A DNA stretch of 64,000 bases from Truepera sp. (GTDB taxonomy: Bacteria; Deinococcota; Deinococci; Deinococcales; Trueperaceae). Positions within the stretch are counted from its first letter, which is position 1; each line of letters opens with the position of its first letter. The notes beneath the pieces were generated by a model. That model did no database searches. It saw only the letters and a program-made list of their open reading frames with translations, and was not told where the DNA came from. Positions 48,094 through 55,795 of the stretch are shown here, piece after piece. The position numbers were made by a program, and so were the translations under genes. The DNA is taken from assembly GCA_965218435.1 (NCBI GenBank), contig CBDCKW010000005.1, forward strand, positions 96,001 through 160,000. Direction: 5' to 3'.

Positions 48094-49291
48094 TAGGGCA
48101 AACGCACTAGCTCACTCCGCTCAGGCCCAGGAGACTTAGGAGATAGTCGTCGTTGAGTAAGGCTCTGAACCGCTTGCGCCGCTTGGAGGCGGTGAAGCTG
48201 GTATCGAGATTGATAAGGTTAAGGGCCAAACGGCGTAGTGAAGCCAAGTTCTGAGCAGCAAAGCCTTTGCGCGTGCGTGAGGCGTCCTCACGGAATAGGA
48301 CGTCGAGTGGGTGATGCTGCTGGTTTTCAATCGACCAGTGCTTTCTGACCTTGCTAAGTGCTTCGGAAGCAGAGAAGGTGTGTGAGGTAAGGAAGAAGCG
48401 GCGTTGGTAGGATTCTTGACCGTATCTCAACACGTGGGTATCGACGACGATGACCGCGCTGAGTTGTGCCCAATCTGAAAGTCCACAATCTGCTTTTTCG
48501 AGATAGCTCAGATCCCGCATCACCCAGCAGGTTCTGGTTTCCTGCCGCCCGTGTGCCACATCGAAAGTTTCAGCCCTGTCCAACGCCCCGACTTCTTTAA
48601 GCTGGTAATCGAACAGCCAACCAACCTCGTTAAACAACACGCCATGATTGGCTTTGAGTGACAAGACATACTCAGCCCCCTGGGTTGTGATGTGCTCGGC
48701 AACCTCCTTGTGACAACCCGCCGCGTCAATGCTTACGCTAGCACCCTCCAGGTCAAGTAGGTCTAGCAGCTCGGGAATGAGGCTGAGTTCATTTGCGTTG
48801 TTTTTAAGGGCAAGCTGTGCCAGTACAAGTTCATTCTCACTTGCCCAGGCGCTCAACATCGTTATAGCAGCCCGGCCAGGCTCGCACTTACTTTTCCCCT
48901 TCGACTTGGAACCGCGCAACATCTTTCCGTCAATGCTGATGAGCTTTTCCTCGCTCAGCTGACTTACCGTATGCATCCAGCGTATAAAGCATGTCTGCCA
49001 AGCAGCGGGATCGAGTTGTGCAAACACGCGGGTAAAGGTGTCGTGAGATGGGATACCGTGGGGCAACGCTAGAAACTTTCTCAAAAAGTCTTCTTTCATA
49101 ACCCCGTAATCTGCTATCTCTTCCCAGGTTTCTGACTTGGCGATGACGGCGCATACGGTTATCACCACAATGTCTATCAGTTTGTGCAGCTTTAGGGGGT
49201 GCTCTCTGCGTGGGTCGGGTAATTCGGTAAACGCCTCTAGTATGTTCGTGACCATCCCACAGCTTAGAGCATGGCTAGTGCGTTTGCCCTA
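48094..49291 (-). mobile_element. ISAs1-family IS
   Basis: perfect 18-bp IR TAGGGCAAACGCACTAGC; flanking direct repeats GCCACAGTG/GCCGCAGTG. Confidence 0.93.
48107..49255 (-). CDS. ISAs1-family transposase
   Basis: PSHDTF, IDGK, SIDAAGC, LKAN, HGRQE, HWSIEN. Confidence 0.95.
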   Translation of the reverse strand: MVTNILEAFTELPDPRREHPLKLHKLIDIVVITVCAVIAKSETWEEIADYGVMKEDFLRKFLALPHGIPSHDTFTRVFAQLDPAAWQTCFIRWMHTVSQLSEEKLISIDGKMLRGSKSKGKSKCEPGRAAITMLSAWASENELVLAQLALKNNANELSLIPELLDLLDLEGASVSIDAAGCHKEVAEHITTQGAEYVLSLKANHGVLFNEVGWLFDYQLKEVGALDRAETFDVAHGRQETRTCWVMRDLSYLEKADCGLSDWAQLSAVIVVDTHVLRYGQESYQRRFFLTSHTFSASEALSKVRKHWSIENQQHHPLDVLFREDASRTRKGFAAQNLASLRRLALNLINLDTSFTASKRRKRFRALLNDDYLLSLLGLSGVS

Positions 49292-49979
49292 GCCGCAGTG
49301 CTTGAAGGTGTTGAGGACGTTTTCAGGCGTAACAGTTTTGACGGCATTACAAAAGGCTTCAACGAGTTCGCCAAGGGTAGCAGGGCGAAGGCTTTTGACG
49401 AAGGCTTTGAGCTTGGCAAAGAGATGTTCGATGGGGTTCAGGTCAGGTGAGTAAGTTGGGAGCTATAAGAGTTCACAACCATACGTTTCGACCAGCTCGC
49501 TGACTTCTGCACCATGATGCACACTCCAGTTGTCCATCACGATGACACTGCCCTCGCTAAGGGTTGGAAGCAGGACAAACTCGAGAAAGCTCAGGAAAGC
49601 GTTTTTGTTTACTGTGTCCGAGCGGATGTTCAGAGATTCGACGCTGGCTCGGCGCTCGTTGTAAGCCTTCTGTAGAAGTACGAAACTCTCTCTGCGGATT
49701 TCGCTATAAACAGCCTCTATTTGATCCCTATCAGGAGCTTTTTGTCGATTCTCACTCACTCCATACCCTCCATCCAGTTCTACGTGTCCCTTCGTCTCCA
49801 ATCTCCTACAGCCGTCGCTTCGACTCTTCGAACAGGTAAGCGTTCATCTGTACAAGATCGGCTGCGCGACCTGTGTCACCCTTTGGCTTGTCTAGTTGAC
49901 AATTTGGTTTAATTTTCATACCTTTAGCTTGAGCCGCTCAAGAAACATGGTTTTGAATCTTTCAGCTACGGTTCGAGAC

Positions 49980-50492
49980 TTAATTTCTAGTGGTAGAGTG
50001 TATCGCTTTCAGGGCTATCTGCTCAATTTCACCTTTAGTTAGGTGGAGACGGTTATTTGCACTTTTCCATACTTCTAATTGACGGCGGTAACGGTCGAGT
50101 GTAGGGAAATGGCTGTTACGCACGTGCAAACCTTCGTAGTGTTCACCATCTTCGCAGAGGTAACGGGCGTATGCAAGTTGTCCCAGCTCGTCGTTGCTAT
50201 CGAAACCTTCAAATTCGATCTGCCATGCGTCTACCTCGGGTTTTTCGCTTAGCTGTTCGTAAGCATATTTCAGGTTGCTGAACATTTGCAGTATGTCGTG
50301 TACTTCGGTACAGTCGTCTTCGCTCAAAGTGTCCTAGTAAATACGTTGACTCATGCCGTCATACTCGAGCTCATAACCCGATTCAAGTGCTATACGTGCT
50401 TTTTCTAAGCTACCGCGTTCGTCGGGGTAAAGCGCCTCGAGGATGCGGTACTGATTTGAAAGTATCCAGCGTTCAGTTCTTGTAAGTTTCAT
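49980..50492 (-). pseudogene. YfbU/UPF0304-family protein with an in-frame TAG
   Basis: MKLTRTERWILSNQYRIL...GFDSNDE...NSH; stop at 50336-50334. Confidence 0.85.
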
Positions 50493-50571
50493 CCTGACCT
50501 CTCAAAAAGTCTTGTCTCATCATATATACTGTCATGCTGTGCGTTTACAGATAGCGTCTAAGGAGATACAC

Positions 50572-50850
50572 ATGTCCGGGCAAGCCTCAATTCCTACAGT
50601 TTCTTTCATCGTCATCGAGGTCTCCGAAGAATCTCCAAAAGGGTTAGGGCAGCTGCGGTTTCGGATCGCTCCTCGAAAGGGTGAGAACATAACTTTAGAA
50701 GACAAAGAGGGTCAAGCACAAAACTATGAAGTTTTAGCTGTTATCCACCCATCGGAAATTGCAGCAACTGCAGGTGATCTGCTGGTTCGTCATACCGGTA
50801 GCGATGCTGATTCTCGCAGTTCGTTTAGACGTAATTTCTTTGTTATGTAG
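50572..50850 (+). CDS. hypothetical protein
   Basis: AAGGAG SD, 92-aa ORF. Confidence 0.55.
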   Translation: MSGQASIPTVSFIVIEVSEESPKGLGQLRFRIAPRKGENITLEDKEGQAQNYEVLAVIHPSEIAATAGDLLVRHTGSDADSRSSFRRNFFVM

Positions 50851-51200: not shown

Positions 51201-51229
51201 TTGACATGACTTAACATTAAGTTTAGACT
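51201..51229 (+). promoter_or_regulatory. sigma70 promoter with an operator in its spacer
   Basis: TTGACA-17-TAGACT containing the palindrome ACTTAA-CA-TTAAGT. Confidence 0.75.
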
Positions 51230-51382
51230 TATAAAGGTGATGGGTGACCATTGCCCAAATAAAAGTGCGGACAGTTGCAGCTGCCCGCCAAAACCTGAAA
51301 CCCGGCCAGGCCGCGTCTCACGCAACGCTAGCCTACGGCCACAAGTTGTCAGCTGTCAATTTCAGCGATGAGGGGTGATTGC

Positions 51383-51661
51383 ATGAGTGCTAGCCAGATT
51401 CACGACCAGAGAAAGCCGGAGAAGCCCGGTAAACCCAAAAAGCTGAATATCTTTATCAACCAGAAAAAGCTCGAGGTCGAAGCTGATGAGATGACCCCAC
51501 GTCAGCTGCTGAAGCTTGCTAATGAGAGCCCGGAAGAAGTTGTTCTGGCGCTCAAGGAGAAAGGTCAGCTGACCAAGTACGAGGGCCTCGATGAAAAGAT
51601 CCCCCTCCAGAACGGCATGCACTTCGTCACGATGGACACGACGCCCACGCCGGTGAGCTGA
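51383..51661 (+). CDS. ubiquitin-like (multiubiquitin-domain) protein
   Basis: beta-grasp pattern LNIFINQKKLEV...MTPRQLLKLA...IPLQNGMHFVT; first gene of an E2/E1 operon. Confidence 0.8.
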   Translation: MSASQIHDQRKPEKPGKPKKLNIFINQKKLEVEADEMTPRQLLKLANESPEEVVLALKEKGQLTKYEGLDEKIPLQNGMHFVTMDTTPTPVS

Positions 51662-52038
51662 TGTCCGCACAAGAAACGCTGATGGCAGACCTCGAGGCGC
51701 GAGGCTACATCGTCGAAGCTATCAACGCAGGAGGACAACCTTTTGTCCTCCTCAAAGACTTCACGGTGCAGTCCGGTCGGTTCGAGGGCAAAGTCATCGA
51801 CATCGGGCTTGAAGTCCAGCCCAGCTATCCACAACACCTCGCGTCAGCCCTGCACATCAGGGCGGAGCCGAAACTTCTGTCCCCTGGCCCCCACCCGCAT
51901 AACTACAATGTTCTAGAGGGCAACAGTCCGCTCGGCCCAGCGTGGCAATACTGGAGCTTTAACTTTACCGACGCCTGGCGAGGAGGGCAAAGAGCGAGCC
52001 TAAACTCGATCATCAACGGGGTGATGCACCATGCCTGA
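51661..52038 (+). CDS. prokaryotic E2/UBC-like protein, Cys-free
   Basis: SYP and WQYWS motifs; lies between Ubl and E1; TGATG coupling. Confidence 0.7.
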   Translation: MSAQETLMADLEARGYIVEAINAGGQPFVLLKDFTVQSGRFEGKVIDIGLEVQPSYPQHLASALHIRAEPKLLSPGPHPHNYNVLEGNSPLGPAWQYWSFNFTDAWRGGQRASLNSIINGVMHHA

Positions 52039-53431
52039 GCTCGAGTACAGCGTCGCTATGACTCAGAAGACGCACGACGAACTCGCCGGATTTTTGCTGC
52101 GCGAAGACCTGCAAGAGGATCTGGTGTTCGCGCTCTACACACCGTCGCAGGGTGAGACGCGCTTCACCGCCCTGATCAGTGACATCATCTTTCCGCAAGA
52201 AGGCGAGCGCGAGGTTCACGGAAACGTCTCCTTCCATCAGCCCTATCTCGAGCGCGTTTACAGCGAGGCGCTCCTTCAAGAGAAAGGCGTCGTTTTTCTG
52301 CACAGCCACCTGGGCCCGGGCTGGCAGGGGATGAGCAGGGACGACGTTCACGCTGACACGCGCGTCGCCCTTAGCGCCGTTCCCACGACTTCCCTTCCGC
52401 TCCTTAGCATGACGTTAGGAACCGATGGCACCTGGAGTGCCAGAGCCTGGAGGAACGATGACGGCACGCCCAGCATGCGCTGGTGCGCGAACGTCCGGGT
52501 CGTCGGTACTCAGCTCAAGACCGACTTCGCGGATTGCGTGCGCCCGAAACCGCAACCGACCGAACGACAGAGGCGCACGGTCGCTGTCTGGGGCGAGGCG
52601 GAGCAAGCGAAGATGACACGGCTAACGGTCGGGATTGTGGGGCTCGGAAGTGTCGGCAGCCAGGTGTGCGAGCAGCTGGCCCGCTCCGGGTTCACCCGGC
52701 TCGTCTTCATCGACCACGACCGGGTCGAGGTGCACAACCTCGACCGCCTGGCGGGCGCGTTCCCGGAAAACCTGGGCGAGCTGAAGGTAGACGTAGCGGC
52801 CCGCAACGCCAAGCGGTCGAACACGGCCGACTCGGTGTCGGTAAGATCTGTACCGATGAAACTTACGAGCTCCGAAGGCTACCGCGCCGCCCTGGACTGC
52901 GACGTCCTGTTCAGCTGCGTAGATAGGCCACAGCCGCGCCGCCTGCTCGACCACCTGGCTTACGCTCACCTGATCCCTGTCATCGACGGCGGCATCCGAG
53001 TCAAGCATAAGGCTGGGGCGTTTTCGACGGTGAACTGGCAGGTACAGACGGTCGGACCCGGGCGTCCGTGCCTGGAGTGCGTCGGTGCGTACGACCCCGG
53101 TGAGGCCGACATGGATGCCAAGGGACTACTGGACGACCCCACCTATCTCGCAGGTCTCGGCAGTCGCAAGGGTGCGCGGGCCAGTGAGAACGTCTACACT
53201 TTCAGTAGCGCGGTGGCGTCCACGGAAATGATGCAACTCTTTGTGCTGGTGACTGGTCTGCAAAACTTTGGAATTCAGCGGTTCGACTTCCGCGCGGGCG
53301 TCACCGAGTCTTATCTAGAAGAGTCGCGTGACCTTTCGTGCTCGTGCAAAGACGACCTTCTCGGCACCGGAGACACGGTAGTGGACTGGCTCGCTCACGA
53401 CTTGGCCCTTGAGGCGCAGCACCAGAAGTAA
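52031..53431 (+). CDS. JAB/MPN peptidase fused to a ThiF/E1-like adenylyltransferase
   Basis: E...HSH-x7-S-x2-D JAMM motif; GLGSVG, DHDRVEVHNLDR, SCVD, PCLEC, C-terminal CSC. Confidence 0.9.
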   Translation: MPELEYSVAMTQKTHDELAGFLLREDLQEDLVFALYTPSQGETRFTALISDIIFPQEGEREVHGNVSFHQPYLERVYSEALLQEKGVVFLHSHLGPGWQGMSRDDVHADTRVALSAVPTTSLPLLSMTLGTDGTWSARAWRNDDGTPSMRWCANVRVVGTQLKTDFADCVRPKPQPTERQRRTVAVWGEAEQAKMTRLTVGIVGLGSVGSQVCEQLARSGFTRLVFIDHDRVEVHNLDRLAGAFPENLGELKVDVAARNAKRSNTADSVSVRSVPMKLTSSEGYRAALDCDVLFSCVDRPQPRRLLDHLAYAHLIPVIDGGIRVKHKAGAFSTVNWQVQTVGPGRPCLECVGAYDPGEADMDAKGLLDDPTYLAGLGSRKGARASENVYTFSSAVASTEMMQLFVLVTGLQNFGIQRFDFRAGVTESYLEESRDLSCSCKDDLLGTGDTVVDWLAHDLALEAQHQK

Positions 53432-53498: not shown

Positions 53499-54602
53499 AT
53501 GAATGTTAATTATATCGGCCCACTCCGGGAACAGGTGGGCCTGTCCCAGACGGAGCTAGGCGAAAAGGTCGGCGTGACGCGCCAGACCATCGCCGTTTGG
53601 GAAAGGGGGGAGCGCCTCCCGTCGCTCGGTCAGCTCAGTCGCATCGCGGGCGCACTGGGCGTCTCACTCGACGTTTTCCTCCGGGCAGCCGAAGAGGAAG
53701 GTCCTACTCTGCTATTTCGGGCGGACGACGCAAGGGCACTAAACCCTTCCCTGCGCGCGCTCATTCAGCAGCGCGTGGAAGACTACGCCGATCTGGAGGC
53801 TTCGCTCAAGGAGACGCCGACGCTTCCTCCAGCCTACCCGCTCGACGAGTTCGACGCGGCGAAGGTCGAGCGGATTGCTACCCAGGTGCGCGATTTTCTG
53901 GGCGTCGAGGATGCGCCGCTCGGGGACGTAATCAGCCTTCTAGAGGACAAAGGCTTCAAAGTAGTTGTCACGCCCTTACCCAAGAGCGTAAGCGGCTTCT
54001 CGGCCTATACCGAAGCCTGGGGGGCTGTCATCATCGTCAATGCCAGCCATCCGGTGGACAGACAGTACTTTACGGCGCTTCATGAACTCGCCCACCTGAT
54101 CTGCCACCGTAAAGACTACAACCATCAAGAGATCAGGGAAGCGAAAGATCCTCGTGAGAAGATCGCCAACCGGATGGCAGGGGCCGTCCTCATCTCCCGC
54201 GAGATGATGGAACGTGAACTCCGCGGCTATCAGCATGCCTGGATTCCAACTCCCGTTCTTGCCAACCTCAAGCAGCGCTATAGCATGAGCATGGCCACGG
54301 TCCTTATGCGCGCCCGGGATCTCGGCATGATTACTGCACGGCAAGCTGGACAGCAGCTAGGCAAACTCAAAAAGTTGCGTGACGAAGATGGGAGTGAGCC
54401 TTCGAAACTCAAGCGTCAAGCGGACCAATTTGAGTCTGACATCTTTGTTGCTTATAACCGCTTGGAGCGGCTGGTGTACGAGGCCGCCAGCAAAGAGCTC
54501 ATCACTCGGTCCCGAGCTGCGGAAATTTTAAGCAAACCGCTGCTAGAAGTCCGGAAACAGCTTGAAGGCTGGCGATCTGAGCAGAGCCCGATCGAAAGTT
54601 GA
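53499..54602 (+). CDS. XRE HTH fused to an ImmA/IrrE metallopeptidase
   Basis: LSQTELGEKVGVTRQTIAVWERG; HELAH; EKIANRMAG. Confidence 0.92.
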   Translation: MNVNYIGPLREQVGLSQTELGEKVGVTRQTIAVWERGERLPSLGQLSRIAGALGVSLDVFLRAAEEEGPTLLFRADDARALNPSLRALIQQRVEDYADLEASLKETPTLPPAYPLDEFDAAKVERIATQVRDFLGVEDAPLGDVISLLEDKGFKVVVTPLPKSVSGFSAYTEAWGAVIIVNASHPVDRQYFTALHELAHLICHRKDYNHQEIREAKDPREKIANRMAGAVLISREMMERELRGYQHAWIPTPVLANLKQRYSMSMATVLMRARDLGMITARQAGQQLGKLKKLRDEDGSEPSKLKRQADQFESDIFVAYNRLERLVYEAASKELITRSRAAEILSKPLLEVRKQLEGWRSEQSPIES

Positions 54603-55200: not shown

Positions 55201-55587
55201 TTATACAATTCGCCAGGGAACCCGCACGAGACCTTCAATGTAACCGAAGTGTTTATCGAACTCGAGGAGCGGTACCTGATGCCGCAACGCGACCTGAGCG
55301 ATAAGGCCGTCTGTCGCAGGGATCGTCAGACCTTGACTCCGCAACTCCGCGAGCCGCTCACCAGCTGTCCGATAGTCGCTCTCCTCAGTTTTGAGCCGGA
55401 GCGTGGAGCGCATCAAATTACGTACGTCTTCTTCATCGGGACGTACGTTTTGCACCACTTCGAGTTCGACCATGCCGCAGACCGCTGCGTTTCCGTCGGC
55501 TAGAGCCGCGTCGACCCGCGCGGCTAACGGTTCTTGCCCCTGAAAGAAGGCAATCCAGGCACTGGTGTCGATCAAAACTTCAGCCAT
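55201..55587 (-). CDS. vapC: VapC PIN toxin
   Basis: LIDTSAWI, ELE, TDGLIA, DKHF. Confidence 0.9.
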   Translation of the reverse strand: MAEVLIDTSAWIAFFQGQEPLAARVDAALADGNAAVCGMVELEVVQNVRPDEEDVRNLMRSTLRLKTEESDYRTAGERLAELRSQGLTIPATDGLIAQVALRHQVPLLEFDKHFGYIEGLVRVPWRIV

Positions 55588-55795
55588 TAGGCTCGAGTTC
55601 ACCCAGCTCGGCCGCTTCGATCTCTTCACTGCTGGTGATCTCGACCTTACCCCTAAGGGCACGGAACCGGTCGAGTCGGCGGCGGCGCAGATACTCACTC
55701 ACCGCCGTACTTATGGCTTGCGTCATATTGGTCGTGTGGGTAACCTCGAGCAGTTCTTGCAGCGTCTCGTCGTTTAGCGTAACAGACGTTCGCAT
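55580..55795 (-). CDS. vapB: VapB-type RHH antitoxin
   Basis: MRTSVTLNDETL...AVSEYLRR...LRGKV, overlapping vapC. Confidence 0.85.
   Translation of the reverse strand: MRTSVTLNDETLQELLEVTHTTNMTQAISTAVSEYLRRRRLDRFRALRGKVEITSSEEIEAAELGELEPNG

Follow-up and report, generated by a model that had tools for sequence, protein, structure and literature searches.

A Bub-like operon of Truepera sp. encodes a ubiquitin-like protein that ends in a conserved serine

Type I Bub (formerly 6E.1/DUF6527) has been described from Citrobacter sp. RHBSTW-00271 as an operon encoding BubAB, BubCD and BubE (Ye, Gong, Chambers and Corbett, bioRxiv 10.1101/2024.11.21.623953, hereafter the Bub preprint, cited throughout for its accessible passages), with structures in the Protein Data Bank (PDB; 9ea4, 9ea8 and 9eae). 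According to the Bub preprint, BubCD splits the BubAB fusion by a cut that follows the conserved Gly229, has no cysteine in its crossover loop and possesses an invariant catalytic Tyr370, and in BubB the catalytic Ser333 is accompanied by His335 and Asp299. Conjugation is lost in BubCD Y370F and in BubB S333A/H335A, and the product is lysine-dependent, being abolished by BubB K358R; BubE (DUF6527), a Ser-His peptidase, is stated to be present in all Bub operons, and CapH and CapP adjoin 31% of them (Bub preprint). Operons of a polyubiquitin-like protein, an inactive E2/RWD-like protein, a JAB-E1 fusion and a metal-binding protein Y were tabulated earlier as row 6e, the E2 being called inactive owing to its missing cysteine (Iyer, Burroughs and Aravind 2006, PMC1779556, in the available passages). 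The operon analysed here lies in a 64,000-nucleotide stretch of Truepera sp. (assembly GCA_965218435.1, contig CBDCKW010000005.1, positions 96,001 to 160,000 of the forward strand; hereafter the window) and comprises three plus-strand genes within positions 51383-53431, encoding a ubiquitin-like protein (Ubl), an E2-like protein and a JAB-E1 fusion. It probably belongs to a BubE-poor side clade of Type I Bub that runs the known oxyester cascade with activation of a Ser/Ala C-terminus.

The Ubl of the window ends ...M-D-T-T-P-T-P-V-S, followed immediately by a TGA stop codon, and its last 14 residues contain no glycine. A preliminary description of the locus, made from the sequence letters, had pointed out both the serine end (TPTPVS) and the absence of a glycine that JAB processing could expose, and was right on both counts. 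The likely start is the ATG at 51383, because a GAGGGG Shine-Dalgarno sequence precedes it and database homologues use the same start; an alternative upstream ATG at 51368 gives an open reading frame (ORF) of 97 residues, whose numbering is followed for Ubl residues unless stated. The protein is a single beta-grasp domain with a Lys/Pro-rich N-terminal tail, and its match to Pfam Multi_ubiq, at 25.4 bits, narrowly exceeds the threshold of 24.5. No Lys or Arg follows Lys77. Single-sequence phmmer searches of the Ubl and of the E2-like protein against the PDB gave nothing meaningful, and a profile of the Ubl family gave only weak multi-ubiquitin matches (E ~0.04). The AlphaFold2 (AF2) model of the Ubl (predicted local distance difference test, pLDDT, 81.6) is a beta-grasp, whose top Foldseek matches are ThiS (3cwi), Citrobacter BubA (9ea8_B, BubA 155-229), multi-ubiquitin 8u38 (TMq 0.81) and 9cd2; Foldseek E-values exceeded 0.001 for both the Ubl and the E2 models, and reliance is placed on rank, probability and template modelling (TM) score.

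Seven of the eight database homologues of the Ubl (66-100% identity) end in Val-Ser, and the eighth diverges from mid-sequence, like a frameshifted call. Related loci were collected by a scan of one genome per species, which yielded 153 E1 relatives; the best 80 loci were kept and the window was added, giving 81 loci, some of them near-duplicates (78 of the E2s and 76 of the E1s are unique). In 78 of the 81 operons, a Ubl domain could be detected ahead of the E2, the others being one at a contig end (L033) and two with long fused ORFs (L020 and L035). The last two Ubl residues are Val-Ser in 70 of these 78 loci, Val-Ala in five and Thr-Ser in two; in L065, the script mis-registered the tail on the first repeat, and the ORF itself ends ...EMPVS-stop. 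Glycine is the terminal residue in none of the 78. Conservation of the tail climbs toward its C-terminal end, from Gly at position -6 (39/78), Pro at -5 (60/78), Thr at -4 (63/78) and Pro or Thr at -3 (50/78 and 20/78) to Val at -2 (76/78) and Ser or Ala at -1 (73/78 and 5/78). Directly after the tail residue come a stop codon in 55 loci (56 with L065), an extension of two to five residues in nine, and an in-frame E2 in 13; because this pattern matches that of canonical Ubls around Gly-Gly, Ser/Ala is taken to be the mature end of the Ubl. L011, L022 and L076 exemplify the natural Ubl-E2 fusion.

The same terminus recurs on a larger scale. A profile of 70 Ubls, searched against 1.84 billion cluster representatives, found 833 matches at E<=1e-3 and 450 at E<=1e-10. 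Among the best 150 of the 833, 146 reach the tail, with Ser in 125, Ala in 21 and Gly in none; 102 of the 146 end there, 29 continue for at most eight more residues, and 15 continue longer, mostly into an E2 or pieces of one. The four representatives that stop short of the tail are two that look frameshifted (P0021 and P0062), a Gly-type fusion of three Ubls to an E2 in which the profile hit an inner repeat (P0146, with ...CTEG preceding an E2 that carries YQRWSRH), and one with a different C-terminal part (P0116). The profile includes the tail, which biases the ranking slightly, the tail accounting for a few of the at least 88 bits scored by each of the best 150 matches. The hydroxyl of serine cannot be essential, because about 14% of the representatives (21/146) carry alanine, and the sequences argue that a small side chain, not a hydroxyl, may be what matters at the terminus. 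The non-glycine terminus is a conserved and selected feature across a large multi-phylum family. Many of the Ser/Ala-terminal Ubls (P0009-P0035 and others) consist of two or three tandem beta-grasp repeats in 143-290 residues, so the single-domain Ubl of the window is one of several architectures.

The E2-like protein of the window contains no cysteine in its 125 residues and carries the motif W95-Q-Y-W-S99, as the preliminary description had read it. Ser99 is invariant (78/78 unique E2s; 74/74 in set A1), and W98, Y97 and H65 are nearly so (74, 73 and 71 of the 78 unique E2s, respectively); no cysteine column is conserved in the family, 43 of the 81 E2s lacking cysteine entirely. Through its family profile, not through a single-sequence search, the E2 reaches Citrobacter BubB (9eae_C, E 4.4e-5), the W-S of the family aligning on the W-S of ...QRWSRH in BubB and thus Ser99 on the catalytic Ser333. 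BubB 9eae_C is also the top Foldseek match of the AF2 model of the window E2 (pLDDT 92.4; TM-score 0.59, probability 1.00, E 0.02), followed by classical UBC E2s. The family consensus around the catalytic serine is W-S-R-P-F in loci with a Ser/Ala tail (Ser-type) versus WQRWSRH in the Gly-type controls described below, and the conservation of His65 suggests that it may substitute as a helper of the E2. Two stand-alone Prok-E2_E-like ORFs of 132-140 residues (L091 and L092) have L-W-F-S-W-H replacing WQRWSRH or WQYWSRP and may represent a third E2 variant.

Cysteines of the JAB-E1 fusion stand at positions 152, 169, 213, 290, 296, 347, 350, 437 and 439 and nowhere else. In line with the preliminary description, none lies between C347-x-x-C350 (PCLEC) and C437-S-C439, and the crossover loop is free of cysteine; that description needs correcting in that the E1 does have further cysteines upstream of the loop. 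C347xxC350 and C437xC439 probably form a Zn site. The C-x-C motif (SCSC/SCQC) occurs in the window E1 (53339-53347, residues 437-439) and in the closest relative, L001, and C-x3-C (C433, C437) elsewhere in the family, a minor local difference in the presumed Zn site. C290 and C296 are invariant and lie outside the loop, in the Rossmann-domain stretch D-C-D-V-L-F-S-C-V-D around the conserved Asp298. Tyr372 is likewise invariant (76/76 unique E1s; 71/71 in set A3) and is located in the loop G365-x-L-D-D-P-x-Y372, just past C347-x-x-C350. Among the 76 unique E1s, the JAMM residues E29, H93, S102 and D105 are invariant, H91 is present in 75, and the adenylation residues G201, G204, G206, R239, K252 and D298 are invariant.

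Of the structures in the PDB, Citrobacter BubCD (9ea4, E 1.1e-20) is the closest to the whole JAB-E1 protein and is matched over both domains (residues 10-357). The preliminary description was right in naming Bub as the relative. Tyr372, like BubCD Tyr370, is a residue of the crossover loop, and the two are equated by loop position and by a shared Y-hydrophobic-x-G motif; the pairwise alignment stops at residue 357, before Tyr372, and a MAFFT alignment of Ser-type and Gly-type E1s does not place the two catalytic tyrosines in one column, so their residue-to-residue equivalence is presumptive. In that same alignment, with its misaligned catalytic Tyr, positions differentially conserved between Ser-type and Gly-type E1s are M101/F, G126/S, W187/F, V208/T and H313/Y. 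Across about 80 loci, conservation in the three proteins peaks at the Ubl tail, E2 Ser99 and E1 Tyr372, beyond what chance would give.

The E1 domain dimer was modelled together with the Ubl, ATP and Mg, and the complex obtained a score of 0.72, compared with 0.01 for the best of three controls; in a calibration made without ligands and with other alignments, 116 of 157 solved complexes and 2 of 215 mismatched pairs attained the score mark. The runs agree in at least 82% of contacts, with partner pLDDT of at least 85. The last eleven Ubl residues (62-72 of A2, corresponding to 87-97 of the 97-residue ORF) contact E1 residues 204, 206-209 (the Gly-rich loop) and 295-298 (Asp298), and also touch residues 320-325, 335-337, 352-358 and 381-387. 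The modelled pose is canonical, with the Ubl terminus at the ATP site, which indicates likeness to known complexes, not binding; because a like complex, BubCD-BubA (9ea8), is solved, the pass may reflect memorisation by the predictor.

Gly-type controls were taken from a sample of 301 genomes of one order, in which nine strong Prok-E2_E matches (92-170 bits, versus 40 in the window) all belong to Ubl-E2 fusions with the E2 motif WQRWSRH or near it. Seven of the nine have a Gly-ended motif shortly before the E2 (...QTTEG, ...QTTAG, ...TTTEG, ...QIDNG or ...EVQDG), which would be the equivalent of Gly229 in BubAB. In a FastTree phylogeny of 76 Ser-type and nine Gly-type E1s, a branch of length 2.1 sets all 76 Ser-type sequences apart from the Gly-type ones; the support for this clade was printed as 0.0 after re-rooting and is uninformative, so topology and branch length are used. 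The same order sample contains Ser-type fusions (L093, ...PAPVS followed by DG..., and L094, ...PMTVS followed by DP...; E2 with WQYWSRP), so the two types coexist in one order.

The two types also differ in their association with BubE. DUF6527 lies within about 2 kb of the Gly-type operons in five of the five genomes tested, whereas among the Ser-type loci it was found in four of 71 first-downstream ORFs (L025, L032, L042 and L045) and in none of 147 upstream ORFs. The DUF6527 gene abuts the end of the E1 gene in all four loci, being convergent in three (minus strand; L025:5449-5817, L042:5424-5795 and L045:5422-5811) and co-directional in one (plus strand; L032:5422-5814). These four BubE-carrying loci have Ser tails, so the Ser type overlaps the Type I Bub of the Bub preprint. 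The text of the preprint has all Type I Ubls fused to E2, whereas at least 31 of the Type I operons in its Table S1 have the Ubl and the E2 as individual genes; to judge from these accessible parts, the unfused rows may be Ser-type members already catalogued. BubE-less forms would be missed there, because the catalogue was built by a DUF6527 search. A Bradyrhizobium genome with a Ser-type fusion (L093/L080, G001:C22) has a strong DUF6527 match on another contig (G001:C16:10643-10831), which probably belongs to a second, classical Bub operon, and the Deinococcus saxicola genome with the closest relative of the window operon has a weak DUF6527 match elsewhere (G005:C5:39345-39503).

By homology with Citrobacter Bub, from which every chemical step is carried over, the operon probably works as follows. 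It would probably be kept off by the adjacent helix-turn-helix (HTH)-IrrE-type regulator and, to judge from CapH/CapP homology, be induced by DNA damage or phage infection. The Ubl would be made with its C-terminal Ser carboxylate ready; in relatives with an extension or a Ubl-E2 fusion, the JAB domain would cut after V-S. The dimeric E1 domain would bind the beta-grasp, thread the P-T-P-V-S tail into the ATP site and adenylate the Ser carboxylate. Tyr372 of the crossover loop would then take the Ubl as a tyrosyl oxyester and pass it to E2 Ser99 as a seryl oxyester, with His65 as a likely helper, and the final transfer would be to a target amine, presumably a lysine of a host or phage protein. 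The JAB domain, intact even where no processing is needed, would be the likely deconjugase, and the only candidate for that role since there is no BubE in the genome. The preliminary description had proposed a variant conjugating through a non-glycine end and perhaps undescribed chemistry. The terminus is indeed conserved and selected, and conjugation through it is predicted from the Citrobacter enzymes; the proposal of undescribed chemistry finds no support in that form, since an E1 acting through Tyr and an E2 acting through Ser, both without catalytic cysteine, are already in the Bub preprint, and Ser/Ala for Gly changes the side chain of the acyl donor and not the type of reaction. The chemistry is probably ordinary Bub chemistry, the terminal residue being the point of interest.

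Several observations weigh against placing the operon in Type I Bub with an activated Ser/Ala end. The 100%-complete genome of the window has no match to DUF6527 (PF20137), and a jackhmmer search of all ORFs found the domain absent from 76 of the 80 related loci, in a run of limited sensitivity that also missed the BubE of Gly-type operons. The window E1 is just 25.5-30.5% identical to Gly-type E1s, and its E2 lacks the S-x-H and Asp helpers of the Type I Bub E2, having S99-F100-N101 instead. In the AF2 model of the Ubl alone, confidence is low in the tail (pLDDT averages 45 over residues 71-72 and 71 over residues 61-70). The accessible passages of the Bub preprint state that phage protection could not be shown for any Bub operon.

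The other explanations are less probable. It is unlikely that the Ser terminus is activated for an acceptor other than protein lysine (a Ser/Thr hydroxyl, lipid, sugar or nucleotide) or that the Ser side chain itself reacts, as it might by attacking the adenylate within the same molecule. Other acceptors would be open to a cascade that runs through oxyesters throughout and to a C-terminal residue with a beta-hydroxyl, the active-site helpers of the E2 differ from those of Type I Bub, and no target, E3 or effector gene is conserved beside the operon; against it, alanine replaces serine in 5/78 loci and 21/146 representatives, so that the hydroxyl is dispensable, and the product of Citrobacter Bub depends on a lysine (BubB K358R; Bub preprint). 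Somewhat less likely still is an operon that performs no conjugation, its E2-like protein being a dead RWD-like binder and its Ubl a non-covalent adaptor or regulator of the JAB-E1 protein, as the reading of the row 6e E2 as inactive without Cys (PMC1779556, available passages), the lack of the canonical Gly and the absence of any conjugate seen for the clade might suggest. Such an operon would hardly keep Ser99 and Tyr372 invariant and the adenylation and JAMM residues intact, nor would the stop, extension or fusion fall exactly after the serine, and the homologous Cys-less Citrobacter enzymes do conjugate (Bub preprint).

Trimming of the tail by the JAB domain to an upstream residue before adenylation is very improbable. 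The Gly at -6 in half of the loci (39/78) and the retention of an active JAB domain even where the Ubl needs no processing would allow for it; in the Ubl of the window, position -6 is Thr and the last 14 residues are free of Gly, positions -2 (V 76/78) and -1 (S/A 78/78) are far better conserved than -6, extensions and fusions begin right after the serine, and the model places the last residues in the ATP site. Finally, splitting of a Gly-type Ubl-E2 fusion by a frameshift, nonsense mutation or sequencing error, which a Gly codon in the E2 frame just upstream of the E2 ATG (GGT, 51652-51654) and the frequent fusion of Type I Bub Ubls to E2 might call to mind, is hardly credible and was rejected, since homologues of 66-100% identity, and 55 loci from many phyla, share exactly this tail and stop, 7/8 close homologues ending in V-S and none of the 78 loci in Gly, and since Gly-type fusions have another tail (...QTTEG) and another E2 motif (WQRWSRH), so that the serine end is neither the private mutation nor the sequencing error for which the preliminary description had allowed.

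The features of the operon and its surroundings are listed in Table 1. The three genes are translationally coupled: the Ubl stop codon (TGA, 51659-51661) overlaps the E2 ATG as TGATG, and the E2 and E1 genes overlap by 8 nucleotides. The promoter-like site sits in an AT-rich 530-bp leader upstream of the Ubl gene, and is one of two such sites in the searched region versus 1.1 expected by chance. A 112-residue ORF (50512-50850, plus strand) just upstream of this leader has no Pfam match.

Table 1. Coordinates, in window positions, of the operon, its predicted functional sites and neighbouring features
Feature	Position	Strand	Basis or remark
DDE_Tnp_1 transposase	48107-49255		
DDE_3 fragment	49463-49801		
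yfbU homologue with in-frame TAG	49980-50492	-	Pfam YfbU matches both halves
Promoter-like site TTGACA-17-TAGACT	51201..51229	+	10/12 consensus matches; consensus match only
Ubl gene, 92 aa	51383..51661	+	Pfam Multi_ubiq PF14452
Conserved tail codons P-T-P-V-S	51644..51658	+	Tail composition over 78 loci
E2-like gene, BubB homologue, 125 aa, 0 Cys	51661..52038	+	Pfam Prok-E2_E, 40.1 bits
E2 Ser99 codon, predicted oxyester-forming catalytic residue	51955..51957	+	Invariance, BubB alignment
JAB-E1 fusion ORF, 466 aa	52031-53431	+	
JAB/JAMM peptidase domain (~residues 1-165)	52031..52525	+	Alignment with Citrobacter BubCD peptidase domain
E1-like adenylation domain (~residues 175-466)	52553..53431	+	Pfam ThiF E 2.7e-32
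E1 Tyr372 codon, crossover loop, predicted catalytic residue	53144..53146	+	Invariance across family
Fused XRE-HTH + IrrE/Peptidase_M78 regulator, CapH-CapP-like	53499..54602	+	Pfam, PADLOC
VapB/PIN (VapC) pair	55201-55795		
Phage-type integrase with N-terminal sigma-70 region-4-like segment	56086-57477		

The regulator downstream of the operon matches HTH_3 (E 1.4e-16) and Peptidase_M78 (E 3.1e-17) in Pfam and RmrA (2.5e-37), capP (5.2e-13) and capH (9.7e-10) in PADLOC, which gave no match for the Ubl or the E2 and just generic 'E1-E2' models for the E1. A fused HTH-Peptidase_M78 regulator is found downstream of the operon in the window and in the closest relative (L001), and of the 76 loci with scanned upstream ORFs, 31 have a Peptidase_M78 ORF among the two upstream ones, usually together with or fused to an XRE-type HTH and mostly divergent. 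Apart from the three core genes, no neighbour is conserved among the scanned upstream and downstream ORFs of the related loci, and therefore no target or effector is evident. The surroundings of the operon mark a mobile island. The yfbU homologue, interrupted by a TAG at 50334-50336 (...RIY-stop-DTLSEDD...) with YfbU profile positions 1-49 and 55-164 matched on its two sides, is probably a pseudogene.

To our knowledge, every characterised E1/E2-type Ubl is activated at a C-terminal glycine (ubiquitin, SUMO, NEDD8, ISG15, Atg8/12, Urm1, SAMPs, ThiS/MoaD, BilA and BubA). The usual explanation for this requirement is that the channel beneath the crossover loop of the E1 is narrow. A Val-Ser/Ala family with intact E1, E2 and JAB machinery makes the glycine rule directly testable, and raises the questions how a side chain fits in the adenylation pocket, how a JAMM peptidase cuts after serine and whether the product resists Gly-specific deubiquitinases. 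It is possible, if on balance somewhat doubtful, that a large multi-phylum clade, comprising hundreds of 50%-identity clusters, swapped Gly for Val-Ser/Ala, conjugated through it and, with the loss of BubE, gained an orthogonal tagging channel. If so, the clade would be the first case in nature of an E1/E2-type ubiquitin-like modifier whose acyl donor is not glycine, and Gly-specific E1s and deconjugating peptidases, whether of phage or of co-resident Bub, Bil or cyclic-oligonucleotide-based antiphage signalling systems (CBASS), could neither load nor erase the tag. Two systems in one genome would fit the idea of orthogonality, and an orthogonal pair would offer a compact three-protein tagging system. 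The Ser-type family also enlarges the known set of Bub-like systems. Full-text literature searches and the accessible parts of the Bub and Gong et al. preprints yielded no account of an E1/E2-type Ubl with a Ser/Ala terminus, in a coverage that takes in neither the published NSMB version of the Bub work nor Chambers et al. 2024; the CBASS Cap2 preprint, in which a non-Gly precedent was sought, has just a Gly example.

Among known systems, the ThiS/MoaD carriers with ThiF/MoeB differ in having a Gly-Gly end that becomes a thiocarboxylate with no need of E2 or JAB, whereas the window has a V-S end together with an E2 and a JAB domain; the scan of the neighbours of the operon revealed no thiamine, molybdopterin or rhodanese genes. 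MccB, the microcin C7 synthetase (PDB 3h5n, E 9.5e-6), is a sequence relative of the E1 domain that is reported to adenylate its peptide substrate at a C-terminal Asn, a residue other than glycine, so the E1 fold would not be confined to glycine; its substrate is a heptapeptide, not a beta-grasp protein, and it has no E2 and no transfer to a target protein. Bil and the eukaryotic ubiquitin and Ubl cascades share with the window operon the Ubl, E1 adenylation, the E2, the JAB peptidase and a likely antiphage or stress role, and differ in their C-terminal Gly and Cys thioesters (in the mobile E1 Cys domain and in the E2), where the window operon has a Ser end, an E1 Tyr and an E2 Ser. The row 6e operons share the Pfam families Multi_ubiq and Prok-E2_E and the JAB-ThiF fusion, and a solo-Ubl form had already been recorded in one species; the window lacks protein Y (now DUF6527), and a Ser terminus is not mentioned in the available passages of that paper (Iyer et al. 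2006, PMC1779556). Closest is Type I Bub, with which the window operon has in common a JAB/JAMM domain fused N-terminally to a homodimer-type E1 with a Cys-free crossover loop and an invariant loop Tyr, a UBC-fold E2 that lacks Cys and whose catalytic position is an invariant Ser, a Multi_ubiq-type beta-grasp Ubl, frequent CapH/CapP-type regulators and a location in mobile or defence islands. Unlike Type I Bub, which exposes a Gly by JAB cleavage, the window Ubl ends in V-S (V-S/V-A in relatives) and is unfused (fused to E2 in 13/78 relatives); BubE is missing from the window genome and present in 4/80 related loci, versus 5/5 Gly-type controls; the E2 has His65 and a Y-W before the Ser in place of the S-x-H and Asp helpers; and the E1 keeps a CxxC Zn site.

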